Source: an uncultured Nitrospiraceae bacterium (GTDB lineage: Bacteria > Nitrospirota > Nitrospiria > Nitrospirales > UBA8639). Taken from it: 32,000 bases of DNA. The stretch is from assembly GCA_964525045.1 (NCBI GenBank), contig CAZGFD010000007.1:120394-152393 (forward strand). Direction: 5' to 3'. This document shows, one piece after another, positions 8,867 to 23,603 of this stretch (its first letter is position 1; each line of letters starts with the position of its first letter). The notes beneath the pieces were generated by a model. That model was not told the DNA's origin. It saw nothing but the letters and a program-made list of their open reading frames with translations, and made no database searches. The translations under genes and the position numbers were made by a program.

Positions 8867-9643
8867 ATGAAGCGACATGAGAAAAACGTCACTGACGCCT
8901 ACACAAGGCGAAGGTGGTTAGTTGAATTACGTGGAGACAGCAATTTTCTTGGTGAATTATTCGCAAATTTTTCGTGGCAGGAATTGGGAAAGGTTAAAGA
9001 ACCCCGGTTTTTTCTAGAGGCGGTGTATGGCCAGATATTTTTACAATCTTTGACCTTCGAGGCGTTTACCGATCCCAAGAGGGTTCAATGTGAGGGAGAA
9101 CGCCTATTAAGTCTTATGAATGGAATCTTAAAACTCCAGGTGCCAGGCCGGCCTAATGATGTTACGGAGGTCGGTGGAGTGTTTGTCGATGAAACCCAAA
9201 CCAGGATGAGAAACCCCGTATTCTGCTCTTACCCTGACCATATGGCGCTTCATTCATCCAACCCGTTTGAATGTCGTAAGCTTGTAGAACTTTCGGCTGC
9301 CGATGAAAACGCAGAAAAACTTTTACAGCACTTTGGGTCGCAACACCCATTTTGGTTGACCCTGCTGGAAATGATGGAAATAATCACCTCCGATATGCAG
9401 GCGTTGAAATATGAGGAAGGCTTGCCGTCAGAAGAAAAAATCAAACATTTTCAATTTACAATCCAACAGCATGTTGTTGGCGAAAACAATTCATCAATCA
9501 TTAATCCGAATCAAGACGGTGAGCCGGAAACCCCTATGCCGCTGATTGAAGCCCGGCTGGTCATACATGCACTCTTAGCAGGGTGGATGAATTGGAAACT
9601 GAACCAAAAACCCCAGGAGATGGCGCTCTCTCTTGAAGAGTAA
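8867..9643 (+). CDS. Hypothetical protein (258 aa), no recognisable family
   Basis: A long ORF starting at ATG 8867 with a G-rich SD (AAGGGGGG, 8851-8858). I recognise no motifs. It is flanked by long AT-richer non-coding stretches. Confidence 0.65.
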   Translation: MKRHEKNVTDAYTRRRWLVELRGDSNFLGELFANFSWQELGKVKEPRFFLEAVYGQIFLQSLTFEAFTDPKRVQCEGERLLSLMNGILKLQVPGRPNDVTEVGGVFVDETQTRMRNPVFCSYPDHMALHSSNPFECRKLVELSAADENAEKLLQHFGSQHPFWLTLLEMMEIITSDMQALKYEEGLPSEEKIKHFQFTIQQHVVGENNSSIINPNQDGEPETPMPLIEARLVIHALLAGWMNWKLNQKPQEMALSLEE

Positions 9644-9652
9644 TATAATATA

Positions 9653-9922
9653 CTAAGAATTCCCTCCACTGGCGCTGTAAAGAGTGAGCCAAAGCCACCG
9701 ATTTTGGCGATCAGCTCTTGCCAACTGCTCCTCCATATATTCGCGAGTGAATTGTTTTTTGATTTCCTGTCTATTCCAAATCCGGGCATGTGCGACTTTC
9801 GCTCGCTCTTGAAGGGAATTGGCTCCTGAGGCATTTAAGAGCAGCTTCCTTCTCAGGAGGATTTGGGAACGTCTCGTCATAGTGGCTTTGCGAGACCTGG
9901 GCATCTGGTTGAAGCCTCCCAT
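9653..9922 (-). CDS. Hypothetical small basic protein (89 aa or shorter), doubtful
   Basis: An ORF convergent with the 258-aa gene, with a helical, charged translation. It has no recognisable family and no clear SD. Confidence 0.3.
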   Translation of the reverse strand: MGGFNQMPRSRKATMTRRSQILLRRKLLLNASGANSLQERAKVAHARIWNRQEIKKQFTREYMEEQLARADRQNRWLWLTLYSASGGNS

Positions 9923-10387
9923 ACGTAAGAAATTGCCTCAGACAAACAACCTCACCTGACAACCTAACCGCATGGGATTGCAGTGGTGTTACAGGAGACG
10001 AAAAAATTAGGAAAATAGATTCCGTATGTGGGGTTGGTAGTCAATTGAATGTTTACCTATTTGTCACCTGCTCACAACGCGTTCGCAATCACCCGCGATT
10101 AGTCTTGCCTGGTTCCGATATGTGGAACTTCCTCCGGAGGGGTGTTTGGGAGGACCCACCTGAACACCCCTTCCCCCTTTCTGTCCTTCAACCTTCTCAT
10201 GGCCGGTTTTTTTTACTATTTTTTACCTGTACTTTACGCGTTTGCCATAATGATGCAACACCCGTTTTCTACGATATGAAGTAAGCCTAATACAGGCCTT
10301 CCGGGAGTGATCCAGATTACCCTTGAGGTGATCTATAACCAGTATCGGTTTTTCTCAAATTCTAATTAATCATCGAAAGGAGGGGTT

Positions 10388-10603
10388 ATGACGGTCAAAC
10401 AACTTTTGGAAGATGAGGGTCAACGTGATCGTATCGCCGAGCGTGCGTATGAGTTGTTTCTTCAAGACGGGTGTGAACACGGGAATGATCTCAACCACTG
10501 GCTTCGGGCTGAACAGGAGATTTTTGAGGATTTTCAAGTTGAAGAGCCCGAAGTGCGGCCATTGGAACGAAAGGGCGGGCAAAAGGCCTCGCGTTCGAAA
10601 TAG
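10388..10603 (+). CDS. DUF2934-family small protein
   Basis: A strong SD (GGAGG, 10379-10383) precedes the ATG. The motif IAERAYELFLQDGCEHGNDLNHWLRAEQE matches the ERAYxLWxxxGxPxGxxxxDWxxAE core of DUF2934. Confidence 0.8.
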   Translation: MTVKQLLEDEGQRDRIAERAYELFLQDGCEHGNDLNHWLRAEQEIFEDFQVEEPEVRPLERKGGQKASRSK

Positions 10604-10648
10604 GACTCACTGATCGAACAGGTGTTGCGCGTGGAATTCTGAATCGGA

Positions 10649-11668
10649 ATGAAAATCGCAGTCATTACTGATGCCTGGCATCCCCAGGTCAACGGTGTCG
10701 TCAGAACACTTGACCAAACACGTCATCAATTGGAGAGGCTTGGGCATCAAACGGTCTTCGTGACGCCTCAGGATTTCACGACGTATCCCTGTCCGACTTA
10801 TCCAAGCATTCGCCTTGCGCTCTTTCCTAAAAAACGAATCGAACGAACTTTATCACAATTCAAACCTCACGCTGTCCACATTGCGACAGAAGGTCCACTG
10901 GGGTATTCCGCCGGATCACTGTGTTTCCAGTCGGGAATTCCCTTTACGACATCCTTTCACACGCAATTTCCTGAATATATCCGCGCACGCATTCCGTTTC
11001 CGGTTAGCTGGTCGTACGGTTATCTACGACGGTACCATAGTCGCGCCATCAGAACTTTTGTGGCGACCCCATCGTTGCGGAAACGCCTTCATGATCTTGG
11101 ATTCAACAACCTGGAAATCTGGTCTCGTGGAGTAGATACCAGTGTTTTTATGCCTGGACCCAAGACCTATTTTTCAACCCCGCGTCCAATTTCACTATAT
11201 ATGGGAAGGGTGGCCATCGAAAAGAATATCGAAGCCTTCTTGGAACTTGACCTCCCAGGTTCCAAGTATGTGGTTGGAGAAGGTCCTGACTTACGCTATT
11301 TACAGTCAAAATATCGTGATGTGCATTTTGTTGGGCAGAAACTCGGAAAGGATCTGGTTGCTCATGTTTCGGCGGCGGACGTATTTGTTTTTCCGAGTTT
11401 GACAGATACCTTCGGGCTGGTATTGCTAGAGGCTATGGCTTGTGGCGTTCCCGTTGCGGCTTACCCAGTCACCGGTCCAATTGATGTGGTGCAGAATGGG
11501 AAGACCGGTGTCCTTGATACAGATCTCCGACGAGCCATTTTCCGTGCCCTGAACCTCGACCCCGCGGATTGTATCGCTTATGCCAGGAAGCATTCGTGGG
11601 AGCAATGGACAAAGCGTTTTGTGTCTCTCCTCGAACCGATTGATGAAGGTCGTTGGCCGCTCAATTGA
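10649..11668 (+). CDS. Glycosyltransferase, GT4 (GT-B fold, group 1) family
   Basis: The N-terminus MKIAVITDAWHPQVNGVVRTL is a typical GT4 start. The C-terminus carries the E-x7-E region FPSLTDTFGLVLLEAMACGVPV. Confidence 0.92.
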   Translation: MKIAVITDAWHPQVNGVVRTLDQTRHQLERLGHQTVFVTPQDFTTYPCPTYPSIRLALFPKKRIERTLSQFKPHAVHIATEGPLGYSAGSLCFQSGIPFTTSFHTQFPEYIRARIPFPVSWSYGYLRRYHSRAIRTFVATPSLRKRLHDLGFNNLEIWSRGVDTSVFMPGPKTYFSTPRPISLYMGRVAIEKNIEAFLELDLPGSKYVVGEGPDLRYLQSKYRDVHFVGQKLGKDLVAHVSAADVFVFPSLTDTFGLVLLEAMACGVPVAAYPVTGPIDVVQNGKTGVLDTDLRRAIFRALNLDPADCIAYARKHSWEQWTKRFVSLLEPIDEGRWPLN

Positions 11669-11732
11669 GTCGACCTGATTCTCGTGTTTTCACCTTTCTT
11701 CTTTTAAATCGTTAATACCCGCTTCCATAGGA

Positions 11733-12269
11733 TTACTCTTCGAAATAAGCCCCGAGCAGGTAATACCCGGTTTCCAGCATGGGTAGCAGGTACCAATCCT
11801 CATTGGGGAAGCGCATGGCTAGGAAAAACCCCCAAATGGACAGGACGGTCCCCACGTATTGGGGATGGCGAAAGAGCGAAAAGGGGAATCCTTCGCGCCA
11901 GGGGACATCAAATCCGAATTTATTACCATAAAACACGCCAACCTTGCCCAACTGAATAAAGACGCTGAAGTTGAGCAATTGGCCGACGAAAATCAGGAAC
12001 GCCCCGATACTTAACCAAACGATATCACTTGTCAGGGGATTGAGAGTCCCCTCACCATAGAAATAACACCATCCAAAAAACACCGAAAGTTGAATGCCCT
12101 TAAACATAAAAAAGAGTTTGCGAATCACTTCGATGGGTCCACCCAAGAATTGCATCCAGGGCAGGGCGCACACACGACAAAACAGGTGAGGAAAGCGCCA
12201 AATCCAGGCGTAGCAGATCCGCTCAATACTCAGGAATAGGGCGGCAACCAGAAAACTCCAGAGTTCCAT
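11733..12269 (-). CDS. Integral-membrane SAM-dependent methyltransferase of the PEMT/ICMT superfamily (phospholipid N-methyltransferase-like)
   Basis: Four to five TM helices. GVFYGNKFGFDVPWREGFPFSLFRHPQYVGTVL resembles the PEMT/Opi3 C-terminal motif (GDYFG...FPF...NPMYxG). The start lies 4 nt after the upstream gene's stop codon, consistent with an operon. Confidence 0.82.
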   Translation of the reverse strand: MELWSFLVAALFLSIERICYAWIWRFPHLFCRVCALPWMQFLGGPIEVIRKLFFMFKGIQLSVFFGWCYFYGEGTLNPLTSDIVWLSIGAFLIFVGQLLNFSVFIQLGKVGVFYGNKFGFDVPWREGFPFSLFRHPQYVGTVLSIWGFFLAMRFPNEDWYLLPMLETGYYLLGAYFEE

Positions 12270-12273
12270 TCCC

Positions 12274-14580
12274 TCACTTATTTTTGCGTTTGCCCGGATA
12301 TGGAGGCAGGAAAGCTTGGGCCTCGCTTAATGATCGTGGGGTATAGGCGATCAGATCTGTAAAGGGGTCCGTGATGAGTTTGACAAACCAAATCATCGAA
12401 ACCCGGAAATCATGGAGCCACACGAGATAGGCGACTCGTCCCACCACGACCACCAACGTTAACCCGAACCATTGCTCGGCAATGGCTGGTAACTGTTCGA
12501 CGAAGGCGGCGAACGTCCAGGCACTGGCGTTGAACAAATTCATGATGGGAATTAACAGAAACGCAGAGATGATGAGCGTCTTATTACGTGTGTTATATCC
12601 TAATAGCAGCTCTTCCTTATCGTGACACGGAGGTTCAATGATGGCATGGCCTAATTGCCTGACAAACAAAGCCGCCAGACTGAATGTCACGGCCGTCGTA
12701 AGATCGGTGAAGATCAGAAAATAGCAATAAATGAACACACTTGAGCTAAGGATATGAAAAAATTGATTCAGCGGATGGCTATGCGAGGCCACATGATCAT
12801 CATGTTTGCGTCGCATGACTTCCGTATAGAAATGTTGTAGAGGTTTAGGCACTCGCACAAGACTGCCTAAAATTTCCCAAATAAGACCCGTCCGCATTTT
12901 TTTCTCCCTCCCGGGTTGTTGTTGTTCGCTTAACCACCACCCATCCTGGTTCATTTTCCGTGCCGCGTTGATGAGCTTTTCCTGAAGCTCCTGATAATGT
13001 TCCGCGGTAAATTCCATATTGCTTAAACATCGTCCGGTCCCGACCCAGCTCAGGGTCACACCCTCAGCGCGCAAATAGTATTGCAGCAACCAGTTATAAC
13101 GACTGGGTTCCTGGAAGAGCACCGTCCACACCGTCGCCATGTGAACCACCCGAAGAGGCAATTTCGATTCGGCCAGTTCTTGGTTGGTCTCTTGGGCCCA
13201 TTGGCTACATCGCTGATTGGATTCCTGATACAAGTTGGCTGTTGAGGGATCTGTTACCCAGCGTAAGAATTCATTCATGGATCCCATGACGTGTGGATGG
13301 GCGGAAAATGTTCCAATGACATAGGCAAGTCGCATCGGGTGATCAGGGTCAAAGCGTCGCATCAGATTTTTTTTGCCACATACGACGCCGATCGGCATTC
13401 CGCCAGCGACCGTTTTGCCATACACGACCAGATCAGCTTGGACATTGAAATATTCCTGGGCCCCGCCCGGTGCGAGGCGAAATCCGGAGTAGACTTCGTC
13501 AAAAATTAAGGGAATCCCATAGGCCGTGCAAACCACGCGCAATTGGTGGAGCCATTGTTCATATCGAGAATGCTCGTCCTGGGTTTTCCGTACACTACTG
13601 GTCAGCAATAAGGCATCGCTCGGGGGAGGTGAATTGGGGTGAAATGACTGGACCGGATTCACGAGGACCCCGGCGATGTCTTTCGCCCGCCAACGAATCA
13701 CATCGAGAGAGGCGGGATGGACATCCTTCAATGTCAGGCAATCATTGAGATCACGCTCATTTCCTAAGCCTGGCTGCACGCCATCCCACCAACCGTGATA
13801 AGCCCCGGAAAAGCACACGATCATTTTCTTCTTTGTATTGAAGCGGGCGAGGCGGACGGCGGCCATGACGGCCTCGGTTCCACTCATATGGAAAGACACC
13901 TCGTCTAACTTGGAAATCGATTTGAGGACCGTAATATTTTCTGCCACGATGGGATGCAATGGCCCTAAAACGGGGCCTAAATTCTTGACCCGCTCCAATC
14001 CTTTTTTCATCCATTCTTTGTAGCGGTTATAGCCGGCCACATTGACGCCATAGGATCCGCTTAAATCAAGTGTCCAATTATCGTCAATATCACGGAGTTT
14101 TGGTCCGTCCGAGGCGGTGACAACCGAACAGAGATTAAAATTTTCTCGCATGATACGCATAAAGGGGAACGGGACCCGACCCGCATCCGTGAATCGCAAA
14201 TCGGAGAAATGTTCCCGCATCGCGTTGCCCCAGGCGATGGATTTTGAGCACTGTGTTTGGAAATAATTCGACAGTCGGTTCAACGCGCTTTTTCGGCGTG
14301 TGATCCATCTCTCATCGGCCCCATCCGCCCGAAAAAATTCCTCTTCTGAATAGTCCCTTGATTTCACCCATCTGGCTATACGACGGGACAGCGTTGGTGC
14401 AAATGCCAGCGCTCGTACTGTGATGAGTGCCATCATGAGTTTTCGCCCTAAGAAAAAGAAGGCTATAGCAAAGAGAAGAACACCGGTTAAGATCCAACCA
14501 TTTCCAATCTCACCAATTCCAGATGTCGTTGGGTGGAATTCCAAAGCTAACATTCCCATGCGTAATATTTCGTCTGGCAC
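12274..14580 (-). CDS. Fusion protein: N-terminal TM anchor + class-III (GSA-aminomutase-like) PLP aminotransferase + C-terminal Mpo1/DUF962-like membrane domain
   Basis: The maximal ORF reaches a TTG at 14652. GTG 14580 has GGGGGAGG 5 nt upstream and is preferred. Aminotransferase motifs are HMSGTEAVMAA, IFDEVYSGFR, and the PLP-lysine region ADLVVYGK(413)TVAGGMPIGVVCG (K codon at 13414-13416). The C-terminus carries SHSHPLNQFFHIL...RQLGHAIIEPP within about 5 TM helices, resembling the Mpo1/DUF962 His motifs. Confidence 0.9.
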   Translation of the reverse strand: MPDEILRMGMLALEFHPTTSGIGEIGNGWILTGVLLFAIAFFFLGRKLMMALITVRALAFAPTLSRRIARWVKSRDYSEEEFFRADGADERWITRRKSALNRLSNYFQTQCSKSIAWGNAMREHFSDLRFTDAGRVPFPFMRIMRENFNLCSVVTASDGPKLRDIDDNWTLDLSGSYGVNVAGYNRYKEWMKKGLERVKNLGPVLGPLHPIVAENITVLKSISKLDEVSFHMSGTEAVMAAVRLARFNTKKKMIVCFSGAYHGWWDGVQPGLGNERDLNDCLTLKDVHPASLDVIRWRAKDIAGVLVNPVQSFHPNSPPPSDALLLTSSVRKTQDEHSRYEQWLHQLRVVCTAYGIPLIFDEVYSGFRLAPGGAQEYFNVQADLVVYGKTVAGGMPIGVVCGKKNLMRRFDPDHPMRLAYVIGTFSAHPHVMGSMNEFLRWVTDPSTANLYQESNQRCSQWAQETNQELAESKLPLRVVHMATVWTVLFQEPSRYNWLLQYYLRAEGVTLSWVGTGRCLSNMEFTAEHYQELQEKLINAARKMNQDGWWLSEQQQPGREKKMRTGLIWEILGSLVRVPKPLQHFYTEVMRRKHDDHVASHSHPLNQFFHILSSSVFIYCYFLIFTDLTTAVTFSLAALFVRQLGHAIIEPPCHDKEELLLGYNTRNKTLIISAFLLIPIMNLFNASAWTFAAFVEQLPAIAEQWFGLTLVVVVGRVAYLVWLHDFRVSMIWFVKLITDPFTDLIAYTPRSLSEAQAFLPPYPGKRKNK

Positions 14581-14709
14581 ATTCACCTCCCCCAGATGGG
14601 TCGTATTAGTTGATGGAGTTGCATGCTTCAAATTCAAATACTGAAGGATCAACCTTGAAGATGTTCACGGGAGATCGCTGACGGTTCAAGATGAGTCTGA
14701 ACGTGGTTG

Positions 14710-15552
14710 CTAGCTAACTGAGACTTCCACTTTTTCTTCAGAGGGTATGGATAACGGGTCGTAGGAGGCTTCTTGAGCGCGCTTTGTTATCCCTGCCACA
14801 TCCTCCCGTCGCAGCAACTCCAGTCTTCCATCGTAATGTTCGACAATGGCGCTGTTACTCTCGACCCAGTCTCCACAATTTCCGTACACAATCTTGTTTA
14901 GTGGCGTAATCTCCGGTCTATGAATATGTCCGCAGATCACCCCATCGACCCCAATCCGAGCCGCCTCGAAAGATACCGCTGCTTCAAAATTACTGATGTA
15001 TTGAACCGCATTTTTCACCTTGTTCTTGATTGAGGCCGCTAGTGACCAGTATGGCAGGCCCATTTTCCTTCGGATCAAATTGAGCCAAATATTGATATTG
15101 AGCAGGGTGTCATAGGCCTGGCTTCCTAATAACGCAATCGCTTTTGAAGACCGCACGACGCTATCGAATTGATCTCCATGGATCACAAGAAATTGCTGGC
15201 CGTCTGCTTTTGTGTGGACAATTTTGTCAACGATTCGAACGTTCCCAAAATCCATGCCGTTATAGTCACGAAACATTTCATCATGATTGCCGGGCACATA
15301 AATCACCTTAGTCCCTCGCTTGGCTTTACCGAGAATCGTCCTGACGACATTGTTATGTGCTTGAGGCCAGAATGGGCGTTTTTTCACTGACCAGATGTCG
15401 ATGATGTCGCCAACGAGGTACAGAAACTCGCACTCCATTGAATGAAGAAAGTCAAGAAGGGGCTCAGCACTACATCCCCAAAATCCTAAATGGACATCGG
15501 AAATCCAGACTGTGCGATAGACTTGGCGTTTGGTTTGAAATGAGGCCAGCAA
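14710..15552 (-). CDS. LpxH-family-like calcineurin-type metallophosphoesterase (UDP-2,3-diacylglucosamine diphosphatase-like)
   Basis: Carries the ordered motifs ISDVHLG, LVGDIID, VPGNHDE, IHGDQFD and CGHIHRP. The start is TTG at 15552 with AGGAG upstream. It is the first gene of a three-gene minus-strand operon. Confidence 0.88.
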   Translation of the reverse strand: MLASFQTKRQVYRTVWISDVHLGFWGCSAEPLLDFLHSMECEFLYLVGDIIDIWSVKKRPFWPQAHNNVVRTILGKAKRGTKVIYVPGNHDEMFRDYNGMDFGNVRIVDKIVHTKADGQQFLVIHGDQFDSVVRSSKAIALLGSQAYDTLLNINIWLNLIRRKMGLPYWSLAASIKNKVKNAVQYISNFEAAVSFEAARIGVDGVICGHIHRPEITPLNKIVYGNCGDWVESNSAIVEHYDGRLELLRREDVAGITKRAQEASYDPLSIPSEEKVEVSVS

Positions 15553-16063
15553 TTCACCGGGCTCCTACCGATGAAATGAACAACCAACCTTTCATGCTGG
15601 CAATCCTAACAAGGCAATATTTCACACTTGTAACAATTCCGGGTCATAGTGATGAATAATTAGGGTCAAGGCAGTAAATTCTATATTTCAAAGCCGTTAC
15701 AAGCGATGTAGGGTTGGGTATAGCTTGAGCATTGATCAAAGGTCCTGGGTTGGGGGAATTCAAAAAAAGGTATCTTTACGAAGTAAAACCGGTTAGTGTG
15801 AGAGTCTTCTTGCCCAATCAGGGCTTCTTCGATTTGAGGGACCTCCCAATTTCTGAGTCAACAGTGGCGCTTGACCTATGGAATGCCCTCAAGAATGGCG
15901 GTTTTTTATACAATGACCGAATGAAGACCTTTCACTTTCATTGTCAAAATTTTTGTGGGAATTCGTAAAAGGCCTCCCCCTGAATACTCCTCCGGATTGA
16001 TGTGCGGCTTGGAGGACTACCCGCAGTCAAAATGGTCCCCGACAGTACAGGAGACTGTGATTC

Positions 16064-18286
16064 ATGAATAGATTGGGAATGAAGGGTCGAAATCGGAATG
16101 CGCTGAAACGGCAATGGGTGATGGGGCTTTGCATTTTGGGCGTTCTGATTTCAATTCGAATTTGGGATCCTCTGCCGGTTAAACTGCTTCGATTCCAATC
16201 GTTTGACCTGTATCAAAGAACCCAACCCCGAACGGTTAAAGAAAATCAAATTGTCATTGTTGATATTGATGAATCCAGTTTGGCTCAGTACGGCCAATGG
16301 CCCTGGCCTCGAAATGTGATGGCTGAGCTTGTTCGGAAAATTGTTGATTCCGGGGCGAAAGTCATCGGATTTGATATCGTGTTTGCCGAGGCCGATCGCC
16401 TTTCACCAACCCACATGGCGAGGTCGCTGATAAATCTTGATCCGGCCTCAAAAAAACGGCTCGAACGCCTTCCTGACCACGATACGTTGCTTGCCGATGC
16501 CTTTAGAGAGACTCAGGTTGTGGTTTCGCAAAGTGGGTTGGAGAAAAACACCCTTACCCTGGCAAATATTTCACCCGGAAAACCTACGATAATTAAGATC
16601 GGAGAGGATCCCAACCCCTTCCTCATATCGTTTGCCGGACTTCTTCCTACTATCCCGAAGTTGGGAGAGGCTGCAGCTGGTCATGGGGTGATTAGCATCA
16701 GTCCCGAACCCGATGGGATTGTCCGGCGGGTTCCGGCGATACTGAGAGTTGGCGAACACCTATTGCCCGCCCTCAGCCTCGAAATGTTCCGGGTGGCATC
16801 CGGAGAATCGCATATATCGGTCCAGAGTGAATTTGAAGGGGTTCGGGGAGTCAAGATTGCAGAAACCTTTATTCCCACCGATAAAGCTGGTCGTGTATGG
16901 GTGCATTTTGCCAGACGCAACTCCCAGGAATATCTTTCAGCCGTGAGCTTGCTCAAAGGCGAACGGCATTCCAGGACCTTGCAAGATAAATTGGTTCTTA
17001 TTGGCACTTCCGCTGTCGGGTTAGGTGATATTAAGGTAACACCGGTAGACGGGAATGTTCCCGGAGTAGAAGTTCACGCACAAATGTTGAGCATGATGCT
17101 TGGTCAATCATTTTTAACCCGACCTAACTGGATTCTCGCCACTGAAGCCCTCAGTATGTTCTTCCTTGGCCTTGTCATCATCTACTGGGTTTCGCGCTTT
17201 CGTGCCCTGTCCATCATCTGGATGACGGGGAGTCTATTCATGGGAATCATTGGAGCCTCCTGGTATGCATACAGGGTCCAGGGAGTGTTATTTGATGCAT
17301 CCTTCGGCGTTATCGGACTATTGGGTCTGTATGGGTACCTGAGTTACAACAACTACGTTCGTGAAGAGCAATCCCAACGACGTATCCGAAATACCTTCAG
17401 TCGATATCTCTCACCAACCCTTGTGGAACAATTAGCCGTGAACGCCTCTCAATTAAAGCTGGGGGGCGAAACCAAAATCATGACGGTGATGTTTTGTGAT
17501 GTTCGGGAATTTACATCGATTTCCGAGCAGTTCCAATCTGATCCACAAGGGTTAACGCAACTGCTGAATAGTCTGCTGACCCCTCTCACGGAGGTCATCC
17601 TTCGGCACAAAGGAACGATTGATAAGTATATGGGGGATAACATTATGGCTTTTTGGAATGCCCCCCTCGATGATCCGGACCATGCGTACAATGCCTGCCA
17701 AGCGGCGATAGAGATGGTTCGGAGTCTGGAACACCTTAACGCGATTCGTCTTAGAGATGCCCAGGCCAAGAACCAGCCGTTCATTCCCCTGAAAGTAGGG
17801 ATTGGAATCAATACCGGCTCCTGTGTTGTCGGCAATTTAGGGTCTCAACAACGTTTTGACTACTCGGTTCTCGGCGACCCCGTCAATATTGCCTCACGTT
17901 TAGAAGGGCAATCAAAGATGTATGAATTGGAAATTGTCATTGGGCCGCAAACAGCAGAACAGGTACGTGATCGCTTGGCCCTACTAGAAGTTGATCTCAT
18001 TACTCTTAAGGGAAAGGAAAAACCCGCCAGAACGTATACCGTACTCGGGGATCATCGACTCCGTTCTGCCTCCGAGTACCAAAAATTGATGAAAACCCAT
18101 TTGGCCATGTTGGCGGCATTTCGCAGCCGGGAATGGCTACGTGCCCGGACACTGTTGAAGGAATGTCGAGAGAATAGTTATGCCCCACTTGGAGTCTATG
18201 AACAATATGAAGAACGGATTTCCCACTATCAACACCAGCCGCCTCCTCCAGAGTGGGAAGGGGTTTTTGTCGCAACGACCAAGTAG
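16064..18286 (+). CDS. CHASE2-sensor class III adenylate cyclase
   Basis: One N-terminal TM is followed by an extracytoplasmic domain of about 310 aa (IVIVDIDESSL..WPWPR.., GTSAVGLGDIKVTP). Then come 3 TM helices and a cyclase domain (aa 470-655): MFCDVREFTS, DKYMGDNIMAFW, GINTGSCVVGNLG, VLGDPVNIASRLE. Confidence 0.95.
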   Translation: MNRLGMKGRNRNALKRQWVMGLCILGVLISIRIWDPLPVKLLRFQSFDLYQRTQPRTVKENQIVIVDIDESSLAQYGQWPWPRNVMAELVRKIVDSGAKVIGFDIVFAEADRLSPTHMARSLINLDPASKKRLERLPDHDTLLADAFRETQVVVSQSGLEKNTLTLANISPGKPTIIKIGEDPNPFLISFAGLLPTIPKLGEAAAGHGVISISPEPDGIVRRVPAILRVGEHLLPALSLEMFRVASGESHISVQSEFEGVRGVKIAETFIPTDKAGRVWVHFARRNSQEYLSAVSLLKGERHSRTLQDKLVLIGTSAVGLGDIKVTPVDGNVPGVEVHAQMLSMMLGQSFLTRPNWILATEALSMFFLGLVIIYWVSRFRALSIIWMTGSLFMGIIGASWYAYRVQGVLFDASFGVIGLLGLYGYLSYNNYVREEQSQRRIRNTFSRYLSPTLVEQLAVNASQLKLGGETKIMTVMFCDVREFTSISEQFQSDPQGLTQLLNSLLTPLTEVILRHKGTIDKYMGDNIMAFWNAPLDDPDHAYNACQAAIEMVRSLEHLNAIRLRDAQAKNQPFIPLKVGIGINTGSCVVGNLGSQQRFDYSVLGDPVNIASRLEGQSKMYELEIVIGPQTAEQVRDRLALLEVDLITLKGKEKPARTYTVLGDHRLRSASEYQKLMKTHLAMLAAFRSREWLRARTLLKECRENSYAPLGVYEQYEERISHYQHQPPPPEWEGVFVATTK

Positions 18287-18520
18287 GGATAAAAGTCAAT
18301 CGATGATTTCCCAACTCAAAGTGGAATCTAGCCATAACAAAATTTTCGAATATACTTAAAACTTTGGACCATCTCATCCCTACCTGGTTTTCAGACACAG
18401 GGGGGTATGGGCTTTCCCAAATGGTACCTTCACTAACAACTGGAGAAATGAACCTTATAGAATTGTATGACATATTGACTCTGAATTCCTGCCACACATC
18501 AATTTTGAAATGAGGAATAT

Positions 18521-19012
18521 ATGAAGCCTTTCGTTGTCATATGGGTGATCGGGATGATTGTCCATCTGTCCTTAATAATGGCGCAAGCTGCCCCGATTGG
18601 AATGATAAAGGTCTCAAAAGGAGAAACGTCTATTTTGAGAGACGAAACGCAGTTGATAGGGCAAATCGGCCAATCAGTATTTCAAAATGATGTCTTGGAA
18701 ACCGGGAAGGATGGTGCCTTAGGGGTGACATTCAAAGATAATACGAGAGTCTCCCTTGGACCCAACAGCCACCTAAGCTTGACGAAATTTTCGTTCAACC
18801 CCAAGGAGAAAGAATATTCGTTTTTCTCAGAGATTGCCCGAGGAACACTCGTGTATATTTCCGGCATGATGTCAAAATTGTCTCCCGAGTCGGTTTCGGT
18901 CAAAACCCCTGCAGCGACAATTGGCATACGAGGGACGCGTTTCCTTATTCGGATTGATGACGAAGAGCAAAACGAAATGTCTAAAGAGCCAGGTATCGGG
19001 GTTAAGCCATAA
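18521..19012 (+). CDS. Secreted FecR-domain protein
   Basis: A signal peptide (MKPFVVIWVIGMIVHLSLIMAQA) is followed by the FecR-like motifs GDVLETGKDGALGVTFKDNTRVSLGPNS..., GTLVYISG and IGIRGTRF. The stop codon abuts the next gene's start. Confidence 0.85.
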   Translation: MKPFVVIWVIGMIVHLSLIMAQAAPIGMIKVSKGETSILRDETQLIGQIGQSVFQNDVLETGKDGALGVTFKDNTRVSLGPNSHLSLTKFSFNPKEKEYSFFSEIARGTLVYISGMMSKLSPESVSVKTPAATIGIRGTRFLIRIDDEEQNEMSKEPGIGVKP

Positions 19013-21715
19013 ATGCCAGGTCATCAAACCTGTGGGTTACGGATAGACCATCTAACCTGTCGAAGGCTCCTACAATGCATCTGGAGCGCGGCAGTCTCCC
19101 TTCTGGTCCTGGTTGGCTGTGCGACACCTCCACCCGGTCCGACACTGGCTCCGACGCTAATAGAAGGTGAGAGCCGTGTTTCAGGTTCTGCCGTACCTAA
19201 AGCCTCTATTAACGTCCTGGTCAACGGGCAGTCTGTAGCCAAGGGGCCGGCAACAGACAAGGGGGATTTCGTTCTGGATGTTCCCCCTTTAGCTGTCTCT
19301 CAAATTGTGACGGCGACTCAGTCTTTGGAGGGGCTCACGAGCGTTCCTTCCGCCCCGATCATTGTGCAGAAAGCTATTCTGGTCAACATGACCCTACAGC
19401 CTGAACAAACCCTTTCGCTTGTCCTAGGCAGTACTCAGGCTTTTTCCGCGACGGGTACGTTTTCCAATGGCCAGTCTGAGGATCCCCTCCCAGAGGTCAT
19501 ATGGAAGAGTAGCAACCCAGCAATCCTGAGCGTCGATCCCCGGGGACAAGTTGCCGGCCTGAAAGTCGGGACAGCCGAGATTTGGGGTAGTCGAGGGGAG
19601 GTTCAGTCCGCCCATACAGTCATCCACGTCAAGCCACCCCCGCCGTTAATCGTTGGACCTCTGAGAGCTGGAGATTCCGACATTCAGGGGCAGTCGGAGC
19701 CATTTGCCAGCATTCAGATTTGGGTCAATGGGATTCCTCGCGGTGGTGAAGTATTGGCAGATGAACAGGGGCATTGGCAAAGTAGCCATCCACTCTACTT
19801 GGAAGAGGATGACCACATCTTTACCACCCAAACCGTTGCGCAGCATCAGAGCGATCCTTCAGATCCCATTCCCGTTGGCCCGCCCATACTCCTGGAAATT
19901 GACATTCATCCTTCGAATTCGGCCACTCTATCCACCGGTCGGGAATTGAAGTTTACCGCTTCCGGTATCTATTCAAATGGACAAATTGAAAGTCCCTTAT
20001 CCGGAACGTCTTGGTACAGTGAAGATCCATCCGTTGCCATCATTCAAAATGATGGAGTAGCCACTGGGATGAAACCGGGAAGGGTATGGATACAGGTTCT
20101 CAGGGATGCCGTTCAGTCGAAGAAGTCAATACTGATCGTTGAGCCCACACCCCCAACCATCACGACTCGCCCTCGCGCAGGGGACACCGCGTTAGAGGGC
20201 ACAGCCGATCGTTTCGCCAATATTTCCCTGACTATTAATGGCGTGATCCAGGAAATAGAAGTTGGAGCTGATGCTCAGGGTGACTGGAAAGCGGAGGGGA
20301 TGGCCCCGCTCACTGAACACGATGAAGTGACGAGCCAACAGACGGTGAATAGTATTCAGAGTGCATCTTCCACTCCAGTCATCGTGGGGAAGGCGATTCT
20401 CACTCAACTTGAGGTCCCGTCTTCTCAGGTGGTGATTGAAAAAGGTGCCCAATCTCAACCCCTCGCCGCTAGAGGAATCTTTTCAAATGGAAAAGTGAAT
20501 CAAGCCATGACCGATGTGAAGTGGTCTGTCGAGGACCCCCAGGTAGTGACGATTAATTCGGAAGGTATTATTTCCGGAATCGAGGTCGGCGTCACGACAA
20601 TCCAGGCAAGTCGAGATGACATAAGCTCCCCCCCTGTCACTGTCCTTGTCAACCCATTACCACCGGTGATTACAAGCCAGCTGAAAGCTGGAGATACGAC
20701 CGTCCGCGGAACGGCAGAGCCCTCGGCGAGTATTCAGGTTCTGTTGGATGGGGCGACTCTTGGTGGACAGGTTTTGGCTGATGGTCTGGGTGAATGGCAG
20801 ATTCGTGATCTTCCTTCATTTGATAAGGATGATCGTATTTCGGTTACACAAACGGTCAATGATCTAAAAAGTAAGCCTTCAGGTGTCGAAACGGTCCTCC
20901 CCAATCATCCACCTGTCCTTAAACCTATGGAAGACCAATTGGTGTATTTGGGAAGTACCTTGACTGTCACAATAAATGCTCGTGATCCCGATGATGATGA
21001 ATTGACCTACAAGCTCATCCAACCCTCTGTGTTGCCCAATAGTACTCTGGATATCTCATCGGGCCGGTTGACCTATTCCCCGTTGTCGGGCCAGGTTGGG
21101 GAGTGGGAACTCAAGGTGAAGGTGAGTGATGGGAATCTAGCGACTGAAGGGACAATCGTCATAAATGTGTCCCTGCCCAAGAACCTGATTGTATTGCTTG
21201 ATAATGCAGATGGAACGGTGGGTATGATCGATATTACGAATGCCGGCGTGACCCGGGTTCTTGATCAACCGGCCCAGGCCGTAGGACTATTCGGTGGGGC
21301 CTCACCGCCGAGTGAAACCTTTGTACTAAAAGAAAAAACTATTCAAGCGGTATTTAAGGAATCTTTGAAAGCCAAACCGGAAGATCCTCTCAAATTCATC
21401 CTCTATTTTAAGACTGATACTATCAAGTTATCTGCGGAGTCAGAAAAACAACTGCCCGAAATCCTTTTGACCATTACAAATCGGGAGGTACCCGATATTG
21501 AGGTGATCGGCCATACAGACCGGACAGCCTCGGCAGAGTATAATCATCAACTTTCCTTGCGTCGGGCCCATGCCATTCGCGATATGCTGGTGGTCAGGGG
21601 GATCAACCCTCAGGTTATACAGGTCACAGGACATGGAGAAAACAACCCGCTTCTTGAAACACCGGATAATGTCAGTGAACCCTTGAACCGTCGTGTGGAG
21701 ATTATGGTCCGGTAA
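19013..21715 (+). CDS. Large outer-membrane-associated lipoprotein: 4 Ig-like modules alternating with 3 Big_2 domains, a cadherin/He_PIG-like domain and a C-terminal OmpA/MotB peptidoglycan-binding domain
   Basis: The lipobox is LVLVGC, with the Cys36 codon at 19118-19120. Big_2-like segments contain ATGTFSNGQ, ASGIYSNGQ and ARGIFSNGK. The OmpA-like C-terminus is VIGHTDRTASAEYNHQLSLRRAHAIRDMLV...NRRVEIMV. Confidence 0.92.
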   Translation: MPGHQTCGLRIDHLTCRRLLQCIWSAAVSLLVLVGCATPPPGPTLAPTLIEGESRVSGSAVPKASINVLVNGQSVAKGPATDKGDFVLDVPPLAVSQIVTATQSLEGLTSVPSAPIIVQKAILVNMTLQPEQTLSLVLGSTQAFSATGTFSNGQSEDPLPEVIWKSSNPAILSVDPRGQVAGLKVGTAEIWGSRGEVQSAHTVIHVKPPPPLIVGPLRAGDSDIQGQSEPFASIQIWVNGIPRGGEVLADEQGHWQSSHPLYLEEDDHIFTTQTVAQHQSDPSDPIPVGPPILLEIDIHPSNSATLSTGRELKFTASGIYSNGQIESPLSGTSWYSEDPSVAIIQNDGVATGMKPGRVWIQVLRDAVQSKKSILIVEPTPPTITTRPRAGDTALEGTADRFANISLTINGVIQEIEVGADAQGDWKAEGMAPLTEHDEVTSQQTVNSIQSASSTPVIVGKAILTQLEVPSSQVVIEKGAQSQPLAARGIFSNGKVNQAMTDVKWSVEDPQVVTINSEGIISGIEVGVTTIQASRDDISSPPVTVLVNPLPPVITSQLKAGDTTVRGTAEPSASIQVLLDGATLGGQVLADGLGEWQIRDLPSFDKDDRISVTQTVNDLKSKPSGVETVLPNHPPVLKPMEDQLVYLGSTLTVTINARDPDDDELTYKLIQPSVLPNSTLDISSGRLTYSPLSGQVGEWELKVKVSDGNLATEGTIVINVSLPKNLIVLLDNADGTVGMIDITNAGVTRVLDQPAQAVGLFGGASPPSETFVLKEKTIQAVFKESLKAKPEDPLKFILYFKTDTIKLSAESEKQLPEILLTITNREVPDIEVIGHTDRTASAEYNHQLSLRRAHAIRDMLVVRGINPQVIQVTGHGENNPLLETPDNVSEPLNRRVEIMVR
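19160..20896 (+). repeat. Protein-level tandem domain repeats inside the OmpA lipoprotein (about 170-aa supermodule, Ig-like + Big_2)
   Basis: Four paralogous segments: SRVSGSAVPKASINVLVNGQ..., AGDSDIQGQSEPFASIQIWVNG..., AGDTALEGTADRFANISLTING..., AGDTTVRGTAEPSASIQVLLDG... Each is followed by ...D..G.W... and ...TQTV... motifs. The repeats have diverged and are not identical at the DNA level. Confidence 0.7.
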
Positions 21716-21863
21716 GGATCTAGTGGCGCGGATTTCGATTCAACTTTTGAGAGACTTCATTGATTCCATGTTCGACATTCGAAATTCCCCCAACGTTGGC
21801 CCTCCCTGATGCAGACAGGTTGGAGATTGGTCTCGGTGGTCAATAACGAACTTTGGATGTTCT

Positions 21864-22547
21864 CTATTCCGCCGGGACGCAAAATTTTCCTCCCCGTTCT
21901 TCGCAGAGCCGCTGACGAAATCGATCGGACCAATATTGAAAGGCTTTCTCTACATGGCTCCAGGGGTTTCGCACATCGGTTAATTCCCGCCCACCTCCTC
22001 GGCGGTCCACCCCCGCCATCAGGACCTCACCGGTGACACTGTCGGAAACCTCCCCTTCAATGCCAGCGGACCCTACAAAGGCTCGGGTCCCCGTGGCCAT
22101 TTTGGATACGCTGGGTAAAGGCACCACTGAAGTCACGGCATGCATCGCTCTGCTGGCCTGTTCGGCTTCGGTCAGGGCGACCCTGATTCGCATCACCCCC
22201 GGTCCCGGTTTATCAACGACCTGCATCCCTTCGGCTCTCACCGCCTCAATGGCCTTCACCCTCATGAGGCGGGTTAACCGTTGCAGGTCACGTGGAGGAA
22301 TTTCCCCTAAATTGGAATCCTCCCCTCGCCAAACCGTAACGGGGTCAACCATGGCCTTGTCGTAGTCCTTCCAATTCGCGGTGGGGTTTCGATAGTACAG
22401 TAAGGGCTCTCCGGGTTTTCCGGGACGCAATTTGGAATAATCTTTTAAAAATCCGGTGGTCTCGACTTTTCCGGCTTGTTCAGAACCCGCACATCCCCAG
22501 AACAGCACGACCACTCCCAGGATAATGAGCACTCCCTTACTCTTCAT
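21864..22547 (-). CDS. DUF3313-family lipoprotein
   Basis: The start is set at ATG 22547, which has a GGGGG-rich SD; the ORF extends to 22586. The lipobox is LFWGC. TGFLKDYSKLRPG...NWKDYDKAMVDPV resembles DUF3313. Confidence 0.8.
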   Translation of the reverse strand: MKSKGVLIILGVVVLFWGCAGSEQAGKVETTGFLKDYSKLRPGKPGEPLLYYRNPTANWKDYDKAMVDPVTVWRGEDSNLGEIPPRDLQRLTRLMRVKAIEAVRAEGMQVVDKPGPGVMRIRVALTEAEQASRAMHAVTSVVPLPSVSKMATGTRAFVGSAGIEGEVSDSVTGEVLMAGVDRRGGGRELTDVRNPWSHVEKAFQYWSDRFRQRLCEERGGKFCVPAE

Positions 22548-22643
22548 GGATCCCCCTTTTTCTCTCAATTTTGGATTGGGCATCAAGCGATAAGGACGAA
22601 GTATAACCGTTTCAGGCCCTTCACTTTCAATGCGTGCAAATGA

Positions 22644-23603
22644 TTATTCGTCACGCTTCTCCCGAATGAGTTGATGCACAATGATTTCCGGACGACAGAG
22701 GAATCGAACGGGAACGACGGACACTCCGACGCCGGGGGAGGTATAGCCTTTCATATTCTGATACCTCCAGGGGCCACTGGCAAATTTCCGAGGGGATCCC
22801 CCTGTAATGATGGGGATGCTTTTGGGCAAGCAAATTTGCCCACCATGTGTGTGGCCGCACAGATAATAATCCACACCGACTGCGGCCGCATCTTTGATCA
22901 AGTCCGTGGAATGTGCCAATAAAACCTTAACCGGGTCCGCATGTGAGGGAACGGATCGCAATGCCTTTGCCAGGTCGTCTGTTTCGTACCAGTGGGGGTC
23001 GTCCACTCCAATCAGCCAAATGGTTTGGTTCCCCCGGGTGATTGGTATGGATTCATTCAAGAGGAGGGTAATGCCAAGGCCTTCCAGCCCAGGGACCATC
23101 TCAAGAAAGTCATGATTCCCAAGGATGCCAATCGTTCCATGAGGACACTGAATGACCTTGACCAAGTCGGCCATGTAAAGGATGGTTTTTCGGTAATCGC
23201 CGAATGTCAAATAACGGAAATCCCCCGTCAACACACAAAGATCATACTCGAGCTGGGAAAGGATGGTTCGAAGCTTCCTCCCTTTGTCGGCAATACCCTC
23301 AACATGAAGATCGGATAAATGAAGAATCCGAAATCCCTCAAAGGCGGCTGGCAGGTTCCGAAGCCCGACCGTCTGTTCGACAATTTTGTAGTCCAGAGAC
23401 GTTTCTACCCCTCGGTTCCAAAGTCCGGAAAATTTCAGAATCCACTTCAAATACGGACTTAGGAAATCGAGGTTCTCGGGGTAGAAGTGATGTCCCCTCG
23501 TTCCGAATCTCACCGCAGAATGAACCGCTTGAAGCTTTAACCGTTCTCGAACATGGTGGGAGCCAATTCGCGCAAGTAATTGAGTGAGGAGAGAGGAATC
23601 CAT
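22644..23603 (-). CDS. Calcineurin-like metallophosphoesterase (YkuE-like)
   Basis: Carries the motifs LHLSDLHVEG, VLTGDF, ILGNHD, GVDDPH and LCGHTHGGQI. Confidence 0.9.
   Translation of the reverse strand: MDSSLLTQLLARIGSHHVRERLKLQAVHSAVRFGTRGHHFYPENLDFLSPYLKWILKFSGLWNRGVETSLDYKIVEQTVGLRNLPAAFEGFRILHLSDLHVEGIADKGRKLRTILSQLEYDLCVLTGDFRYLTFGDYRKTILYMADLVKVIQCPHGTIGILGNHDFLEMVPGLEGLGITLLLNESIPITRGNQTIWLIGVDDPHWYETDDLAKALRSVPSHADPVKVLLAHSTDLIKDAAAVGVDYYLCGHTHGGQICLPKSIPIITGGSPRKFASGPWRYQNMKGYTSPGVGVSVVPVRFLCRPEIIVHQLIREKRDE

Follow-up and report, generated by a model that had tools for sequence, protein, structure and literature searches.

We analysed a 32,000-nucleotide (nt) stretch of DNA from an uncultured Nitrospiraceae bacterium (contig CAZGFD010000007.1 of assembly GCA_964525045.1, hereafter the window), in which three genes at positions 16064-21715 encode a CHASE2 receptor adenylate cyclase, a secreted FecR-domain protein and an OmpA-type lipoprotein. 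An initial annotation, made from the sequence alone, had proposed that the three open reading frames (ORFs; 16064-18286, 18521-19012 and 19013-21715) act together in envelope signalling. The ORFs are real, and the ORF list of the window confirmed their coordinates and their shared direction on the forward strand. The features of the locus, with lengths in amino acids (aa) or nt, are as follows.

16064-18286, forward strand: receptor adenylate cyclase gene, 740 aa, inner-membrane (ORF, Pfam, hydropathy)
16148-17179 (aa 29-372), forward strand: periplasmic CHASE2 domain (Pfam CHASE2, 2e-60)
17477-18043 (aa 472-660), forward strand: cytoplasmic class III cyclase domain (Pfam Guanylate_cyc, 1.8e-21)
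18287-18520, forward strand: spacer of 234 nt between the cyclase and FecR genes (ORF boundaries)
18521-19012, forward strand: gene of the secreted stand-alone FecR-domain protein, 163 aa (Pfam FecR, 4.6e-12)
19010-19015, forward strand: TAA/ATG junction from FecR to lipoprotein, a likely translational-coupling site, with the same abutment in the related loci L169 and L170
19013-21715, forward strand: lipoprotein gene, 900 aa (Pfam Big_2 in three stretches, Big_6, Big_9, OmpA)
19013-19120, forward strand: lipoprotein signal peptide with lipobox L33-V34-G35-C36 and Ala at +2 (translation and hydropathy)
19145-21169, forward strand: immunoglobulin (Ig)-like spacer region (Pfam; unit alignment A6, 26-30% identity)
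21170-21382, forward strand: a module of ~65-70 aa directly before the OmpA domain, here called premod (alignments A3 and A4)
21383-21715, forward strand: OmpA-like peptidoglycan-binding domain (Pfam OmpA, 2e-17, aa 798-892)

Both domains of the cyclase exceed their Pfam cut-offs (CHASE2, 205 bits vs. 26.3; Guanylate_cyc, 77 bits vs. 21.9). Hydropathy places one transmembrane segment (TM1, aa 19-37) ahead of CHASE2 and, at aa 355-426, a hydrophobic stretch compatible with three more, and CHASE2 should therefore be periplasmic and the cyclase domain cytoplasmic. Pfam and hydropathy together give the layout of a CHASE2 receptor, with an N-terminal transmembrane segment, the CHASE2 domain, a C-terminal transmembrane block and a cytoplasmic output domain. 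The closest solved structure for the cyclase domain is Pseudomonas aeruginosa CyaB (3r5g, 1.3e-32), and the catalytic residues were checked by alignment with 3r5g and 18 homologues. The domain had been credited with all class III catalytic residues, including a Lys/Asp pair of adenine specifiers. The metal-binding residues D479 (in FCDV) and D525 (in GDNIM), the substrate Lys K521, and N608 and R612 (in NIASR) are present and are kept among the closest homologues, but the second base-specifying position is Ser601 (in 'DYS'), aligned with the Thr of CyaB 'DYT', and D599 is not that residue. Class IIIb adenylate cyclases are defined by Lys and Thr/Ser base specifiers. In this alignment the Lys/Ser pair of the window cyclase is class IIIb-like and predicted to be adenine-compatible. 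As a separate observation, the cyclases at L003:2421-4556, L004:9373-11502 and L006:7833-9971, from loci described below, have Arg at both base-specifying positions ('DRIVGD', 'DYRALGD'), not Lys/Ser.

The FecR domain of the second gene also lies above its Pfam cut-off (PF04773, 46.7 bits vs. 24). Hydropathy indicates a cleavable signal peptide at aa 1-23 (cleaved between …IMAQA and AP), followed by an all-beta domain at aa ~26-146 with a conserved 'TP..TIGIRGT' and by an acidic, low-confidence tail (aa 147-163); the AlphaFold2 model is all-beta with a predicted local distance difference test score (pLDDT) of 89. The best match is 5ix9, the 'cell surface anchoring domain' of a Marinomonas RTX ice-binding adhesin (template-modelling score 0.80 over 66 residues; family profile 3.6e-06), and there is a weak fold match to the C-terminal signalling domain of PupR (6ovk, probability 0.85). 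At E<=1e-30 the stand-alone FecR family comprises 553 clusters (50% identity), across which 'G-I-R-G-T' (aa 135-139) is invariant or nearly so (alignments A2 and A5). The 'RGT' also occurs in the FecR domain encoded upstream of cyaK in Sinorhizobium meliloti and in RTX fusions, both discussed below. Anti-sigma factors of the FoxR type cleave themselves at a Gly-Thr site in the periplasm (PMC11637429); an attempt to place that site on the RGT motif failed, the profile search of the PDB giving no FoxR/FecR sequence. The window protein shares with the Fec-, Fox- and Pup-type systems (FecA-FecR-FecI) a periplasmic FecR domain, which in those systems relays information from an outer-membrane partner to an inner-membrane or cytoplasmic output, but it has a signal peptide only, with no N-terminal anti-sigma domain or transmembrane helix, and the output beside it is a cyclase. 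No extracytoplasmic function (ECF) sigma factor (sigma-70 r2/r4) and no TonB-dependent transducer was found among the scanned window ORFs of at least 150 aa.

The lipoprotein encoded by the third gene can be divided into a core of ~200 aa, which is conserved, and a long Ig-like region, which is not. The core consists of the lipobox, premod and the OmpA domain, with the lipobox Cys a few residues before premod; short homologues also have a lipobox (LSAC in L003, LAGC in L006). The Ig region of ~680 aa contains three units of ~170 aa (Big_6-like plus Big_2), a fourth Big_6-like domain and a Big_9/cadherin-like domain. These repeats are visible only by protein alignment, a DNA tandem-repeat search and a protein self-BLAST having found nothing. 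Homologues measure 722 aa in L001, 892 aa in L002 and 900 aa in L169, with a median of ~207 aa elsewhere, and the window lipoprotein is the longest among 50 partners. Judged from these alignments, the Ig repeats are a Nitrospirales-type, lineage-specific insertion between the lipid anchor and premod, outside the conserved core. The idea that they are a conserved feature of the partner was not borne out, since the common partner has ~200 aa.

Premod was defined by aligning the C-terminal ~180 aa of the window lipoprotein with the short partners, and its consensus reads GLPxxYVVLLxNPDGxxGxIxVTN…FGxALxAxP. Searched alone against Pfam at E<=1 it matched no family. In the structural model it forms four beta strands and one helix beside the OmpA fold (pLDDT 91.7); a Foldseek search with the model of premod and OmpA returned mainly matches to the OmpA part and left the premod fold unclassified. 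In one short partner, the 362-aa protein of a Gallionellaceae locus (L004:12239-13324), two extra degenerate premod start motifs ('YVVVLKYP…', 'SYAVLLEPEADRPG…') apparently precede the canonical premod, and premod may thus be repeatable within one protein.

The OmpA domain contains 'GHTD…N..LS.RRA', and the D, N and R columns of 'IGHTDRTASAEYNHQLSLRRAHAI', which are diaminopimelate-pocket residues, are invariant in alignments A3 and A4. Foldseek matched it to OprF, OmpA and Pal at E ~1e-9 and also to YfiB, while its NCBIfam similarities to YiaD, YfiB, PA1041 and Pal are all below cut-off. By its lipobox Cys and pocket residues the protein is an OmpA/Pal-type, predicted peptidoglycan-binding lipoprotein. 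With a lipid anchor at the N-terminus and a peptidoglycan-binding domain at the C-terminus, it is probably periplasmic throughout. The surface exposure first suggested for the Ig-repeat protein is therefore unlikely, because the two anchors sit at opposite ends.

The FecR and lipoprotein genes are tightly joined. The stop codon TAA (19010-19012) directly abuts the ATG at 19013, as the initial annotation had read it, and besides this ATG no further in-frame start codon lies upstream of the signal peptide in the 19013-21715 ORF. The coupling holds generally, with an overlap of 4 or 1 nt in 21 of 50 FecR/OmpA pairs and a gap of at most 15 nt in 40 of 50; the count used the start codon nearest the FecR stop, which favours short gaps, but the peaks at -4 and -1 are still typical of coupled genes. 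The junction between the cyclase and FecR genes is looser. The two genes lie 234 nt apart, and the cyclase may therefore have its own transcript; the spacers of L001 (222 nt), L002 (247 nt) and L169 (238 nt) are of similar length. Alignment of the spacer with those of L001 and L002 showed no conserved block, so that a shared operator or RNA element cannot be claimed. An Rfam scan of 15400-22000 at E<=1 gave no match, and a scan of the spacer for promoter and terminator consensus sequences gave counts at or below the shuffled background, which is uninformative on operon structure. An antisense ORF of 163 aa (18006-18497, reverse strand) that covers the 3' end of the cyclase gene and the spacer is most likely a chance ORF.

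The association of the three genes extends well beyond the window. Synteny in other genomes had been named at the outset as a test of the idea, and the idea withstood it: the triad is conserved in Nitrospirales relatives and a shorter form occurs elsewhere, on many metagenome contigs among others. The locus whose FecR protein is 84% identical (L169) has the identical triad, down to the stop/start abutment and the length of the lipoprotein, and the triad is also present in L001 (FecR 61% identical) and L002 (~55%). In a Methylomonas genome (L003), a Gallionellaceae metagenome-assembled genome (MAG; L004) and a MAG annotated as Deltaproteobacteria (L006), an OmpA gene of 204-362 aa comes directly after FecR, and a CHASE2 cyclase adjoins the pair in varying orientations. 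An OmpA-lipoprotein gene directly follows FecR in 8/8 contigs reached from FecR homologues; conversely, in all three contigs reached from OmpA homologues FecR lies upstream and a CHASE2 receptor gene adjoins. A CHASE2 neighbour is present in 6/8 of the former and 3/3 of the latter (9/11 together). We then scanned metagenomes with the FecR alignment and analysed the loci with custom hidden Markov models (HMMs). The OmpA partner lies directly after the stand-alone FecR gene in 41 of 53 loci with at least 400 nt downstream, and a CHASE2 protein is found within 7 kb in 17 of the 24 loci that are flanked by 3 kb or more on either side.

These counts bear on the possibility that the FecR protein and the lipoprotein form an independent unit of envelope structure or adhesion and that the cyclase next to them senses something else. 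The remaining 7 of the 24 well-flanked pairs (L005, L170 and others) have no CHASE2 gene within 7 kb, and the pair can thus stand on its own or work from afar; beside L127, L133 and L142 we found no other sensor, only unrelated metabolic genes. FecR-like domains also anchor RTX adhesins (5ix9), and the upstream flank of the cyclase is variable, with ~7 kb inserted relative to L169. All of this would suit a loose neighbourhood. CHASE2 proteins, however, make up a very small fraction of genes, yet they stand within 7 kb of the pair in the 17/24 loci and in 9/11 looked-up contigs, in several phyla and in varying orientations, and of all the readings considered here we find a loose neighbourhood the hardest to credit.

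The strongest indication of what the pair does comes from the output domains of its CHASE2 neighbours. Twelve of the 17 loci have a cyclase there; an HD-GYP phosphodiesterase occurs in L098, L109, L126, L130 and L154, a histidine kinase in L090, L106 and L171, and a PP2C/SpoIIE phosphatase with STAS partner-switching genes in L172 and a JGI contig. Since these domains are unrelated to one another, the FecR/OmpA pair tracks the sensor domain and not cyclic AMP (cAMP). A cassette that follows one sensor through unrelated outputs is best explained, on this comparative evidence, as a partner of the CHASE2 sensor domain, which supports the earlier proposal that the FecR and OmpA proteins belong to the input side of the receptor.

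The same distribution disfavours a role downstream of cAMP, in which the FecR and OmpA proteins would be outputs, that is, envelope proteins controlled by the second messenger and placed next to its source for co-regulation. For such a role speaks smc02177 of S. meliloti, which encodes a FecR domain, adjoins smc02178 and lies near cyaD1 and clr; it has been mutated and is a target activated by cAMP-Clr, needed for the downstream phenotype and not for perception (PMC5498481). The 234-nt spacer would also leave room for a separate, regulated promoter. On the other side, no CRP-type regulator gene was seen in the window and no conserved motif in the spacer, and a shared output role is difficult to reconcile with the presence of the same pair beside CHASE2 receptors with HD-GYP, histidine kinase and PP2C outputs. 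We consider it improbable that the two proteins are outputs.

Several genes around the homologous pairs are worth recording in their own right. Partner-switching genes (STAS, HATPase_c_2 and a cNMP-binding SpoIIE/PP2C) and a cNMP-binding glutaminase adjoin FecR/OmpA pairs at L004:4924-9300 and L005:4930-6967, while in other loci the SpoIIE output is part of the CHASE2 receptor. This hints that partner-switching cascades may be fed by cAMP made by CHASE2 cyclases. Immediately before the cyclase gene, L002 has a class II cyclic-nucleotide phosphodiesterase (PDEase_II/Apyc1-like, metallo-beta-lactamase fold; L002:4445-5233), which has no equivalent in the window, and Lactamase_B_2/Apyc1-like genes adjoin the CHASE2-SpoIIE genes of L172 and the JGI contig.

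Gene fusions suggest how the two proteins of the pair may meet. In ~10 metagenome loci, large RTX/BapA-type proteins contain premod directly after FecR in one chain ('IGIRGTSLAGKI…FSLLADPGGTVGEIVLTNDGGTVVLNQ'), with premod E-values down to 4e-12. These proteins, up to >2,500 aa (L143-L165, e.g., L151:726-1800, L157:423-1406 and L145:5151-6935; also L010:13305-15266), start with a weak BapA_N match, to which FecR and then premod are joined. We considered that these matches might be artefacts of glycine-rich repeats and rejected this, because premod lies far from the RTX repeats, reaches an E-value of 4e-12 and shows a clear motif. By the Rosetta-stone argument, the fusions suggest that separately encoded FecR and premod bind each other. 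The arrangement corresponds to the anchoring module of RTX adhesins (M. primoryensis 5ix9; LapA-type), in which FecR and premod stand at the N-terminus of large type I-secreted RTX/BapA-type proteins; in the window, by contrast, they sit on separate periplasmic proteins beside a receptor. It seems, therefore, that some type I-secreted adhesins are anchored on the periplasmic side by FecR-like domains.

The nearest experimental precedent is in S. meliloti, where the CHASE2 cyclases CyaK and CyaD1/CyaD2 can perceive their signal only with the help of NsrA, an outer-membrane protein with a beta-barrel at aa 600-1200 (PMC7529298, PMC13001267, PMC10463352). On pSymB, we found an ORF (L087) that shares 1 nt with the start of cyaK and encodes 1190 aa with FecR at aa 66-160, tetratricopeptide repeats (TPR) at aa 378-587 and a faint beta-barrel match in the C-terminal region. 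The nsrA gene lies upstream of cyaK, and from its size, layout and position the ORF is most likely NsrA. Its FecR domain is 28% identical to that of the window protein (E 3e-10), the TPAA..IRGT motif included. The window cyclase has alphaproteobacterial homologues at 42-48% identity; of the 80 considered, 57 are well flanked, and 28 of these have a large FecR-domain protein encoded within 8 kb, in many cases directly upstream and in some with cadherin/Big_9 repeats. S. meliloti has a further CHASE2 cyclase next to cobUWN (L088), accompanied by a convergent gene for a 294-aa FecR protein; we do not equate this locus with cyaD1/smc02177.

The window resembles the NsrA-CyaK pair in that it, too, encodes an envelope FecR-domain protein next to a CHASE2 adenylate cyclase. 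The two differ in how FecR is held: in S. meliloti it is fused to TPR and a ~600-aa beta-barrel, whereas the window FecR is a free single-domain protein of 163 aa and the tether is a separate lipoprotein with premod, Ig repeats and an OmpA domain. The hosts differ as well, a plant symbiont on the one hand and a Nitrospirales-type bacterium on the other, and no Crp/Clr-type gene occurs in the window. In function, and by analogy, the window module would divide between two proteins what the FecR-TPR-beta-barrel protein of S. meliloti does for CHASE2 cyclases, with a Pal/YfiB-like lipoprotein in place of the beta-barrel.

FecR envelope proteins beside CHASE2 receptors have been described in two further settings. 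A Campylobacterota cluster contains a CHASE2 cyclase, a phosphodiesterase, a FecR outer-membrane protein and TPR (PMC9239204), and Burkholderia and P. aeruginosa (PA4035-PA4036) have a LysM-FecR/CHASE2-kinase operon in which LysM is peptidoglycan-binding (PMC5192318). These clusters share the neighbourhood seen in the window but use fused FecR (LysM-FecR, or a FecR outer-membrane protein plus TPR); neither report describes a stand-alone FecR with a premod-OmpA lipoprotein, and they do not note that a pair follows CHASE2 across output types. Our literature search likewise found no description of such a cassette. In all these systems a FecR domain encoded next to a CHASE2 receptor is tied to the outer membrane or cell wall, by a beta-barrel, by LysM, by an adhesin or, in the window, by a Pal-like lipoprotein. 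Given the NsrA precedent, the FecR-CHASE2 clusters and the mutated FecR gene beside smc02178, the initial statement that no such module had been functionally described was too strong. The interpretation as a whole therefore stands in part: comparative genomics supports the synteny and the link to the sensor side, but the claimed lack of precedent and the surface exposure had to be given up.

Considering these results together, we think it reasonably probable that the three genes encode a three-component trans-envelope module in which the FecR protein and the lipoprotein act as an envelope-tethered co-receptor of CHASE2. A CyaD1 construct without CHASE2 makes cAMP constitutively (PMC5498481), and CHASE2 is therefore inhibitory. 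In the module, CHASE2 would keep the cyclase domain off until a signal arrives. The FecR protein would be exported to the periplasm, made in fixed proportion with the lipoprotein and held by it through premod. The lipoprotein would in turn secure the complex at both ends, in the outer membrane through the lipid and on peptidoglycan through the OmpA domain, as its sequence features and established knowledge of Pal/OmpA-type lipoproteins imply. The FecR domain would contact CHASE2, and this contact might shift with the state of the outer membrane or cell wall, or with something bound by the Ig-repeat spacer, relieving the inhibition by CHASE2 and raising cAMP. We infer the FecR-premod and FecR-CHASE2 contacts, the direction and sign of the signal, and the stimulus.

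The sign could also be the opposite. YfiBNR (TpbB) of P. aeruginosa is an envelope-sensing system (PMC4887326, PMC3375315) that the window module resembles in logic, not by homology. In a partner switch of this kind, a diffusible FecR would repress the CHASE2 cyclase, and the OmpA lipoprotein would capture FecR under envelope stress and so turn the cyclase on. The window FecR is indeed a separate soluble protein, and the OmpA domain resembles YfiB in sequence (NCBIfam YfiB, 70.1 bits, 1.9e-19, below the cut-off of 128) and in fold (6ikj, 4zhv, 4zhy), although other OmpA-like domains match the fold about as well as YfiB does. The other components do not correspond, since FecR is unrelated to YfiR, which is not FecR-fold, and CHASE2 is unrelated to the PAS domain of YfiN; YfiN is a PAS-HAMP-GGDEF protein that makes cyclic di-GMP (c-di-GMP), whereas the window cyclase combines CHASE2 with a class III domain. 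Elsewhere FecR forms a single chain with premod, or with TPR and a beta-barrel, which a permanent tether fits better, and NsrA is reportedly required for activation, not repression (PMC7529298). Because of these covalent tethers and the activating role reported for NsrA, we rank the partner switch second and regard it as doubtful.

The tethered co-receptor thus remains our preferred reading, and several observations weigh against it. The spacer of 234 nt means that the cyclase is possibly transcribed separately from its proposed partners, and ~680 aa of Ig domains (roughly seven) between two anchors are geometrically odd. Besides the well-flanked FecR/OmpA pairs mentioned above that lack a CHASE2 gene nearby, about half of the closest alphaproteobacterial cyclase homologues have no FecR neighbour by the custom HMM. 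The parallel with S. meliloti depends on the probable identity of the cyaK-upstream ORF with NsrA, judged from size, layout and position. Finally, the chief published argument against a straightforward input role is that SMc02177, a small FecR protein, is dispensable for plant-signal perception and needed for infection control (PMC5498481).

The module may also be an instance of something wider, which we put forward tentatively, as a possibility with less in its favour than the co-receptor role at this locus. The stand-alone FecR protein and the premod-OmpA lipoprotein might be a general extracytoplasmic co-receptor of CHASE2 domains of any output, periplasm-spanning and anchored to peptidoglycan. 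Premod would then be a new family of FecR-docking domains, the FecR-premod of RTX proteins would link adhesins to CHASE2 signalling, and FoxR-like self-cleavage at RGT might take part.

As for the genomic setting, the neighbours of the triad in the window include nitrite-reductase-type and formate/nitrite-transporter genes. In the window, ~7 kb (8867-15552) separate the nitrite-reductase-type gene from the cyclase, whereas in L169 the cyclase comes directly after the reductase gene. This additional stretch carries genes for a GT4 glycosyltransferase (10649-11668), a PEMT-like methyltransferase (11733-12269) and an LpxH-like metallophosphoesterase (14710-15552), and also for a 792-aa protein (12274-14652). 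In that protein the core is a class III aminotransferase, preceded by a hydrophobic segment at the N-terminus, as read from the translation, and followed by a long hydrophobic region up to the C-terminal end. The stretch as a whole looks like an inserted block for envelope-lipid or glycan modification. After the triad, and convergent with it, follow a DUF3313 lipoprotein (lipobox FWGC; 21864-22586, reverse strand) and a YaeI-like metallophosphoesterase (22644-23603, reverse strand); the same pair is found in L169 and L001 and not in L002, and might conceivably be linked to the module, for example through a phosphodiesterase role. We considered the flanking Metallophos genes as cAMP phosphodiesterases and could not assign them, the one at 14710-15552 being weakly LpxH-like and absent from L169 and the one at 22644-23603 weakly YaeI-like. 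Unrelated to the triad, a MerR-family regulator with two B12-binding domains and the layout of a CarH-type light/B12-responsive repressor lies at 683-1603 on the forward strand.

CHASE2 is a widespread bacterial sensor, the factors it recognises have been stated to be unknown (PMC5192318), and the symbiosis cascade of S. meliloti is the only worked example that our literature search found. A two-gene cassette of FecR and a ~200-aa lipoprotein, present across phyla and outputs, offers a testable route to CHASE2 perception, for it predicts two protein contacts, FecR-premod and FecR-CHASE2. Its value may extend beyond this locus, since it accompanies CHASE2 regardless of the output domain and includes a FecR-associated module that no Pfam family covers. 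If the wider proposal is true, the complex would report the status of the outer membrane or cell wall, or a ligand captured on the side of the outer membrane, to outputs as different as cAMP, c-di-GMP hydrolysis, a phosphorelay and a partner-switching phosphatase. For Nitrospirales-type nitrite oxidisers, the locus points to envelope-linked cAMP signalling beside nitrite-assimilation genes.

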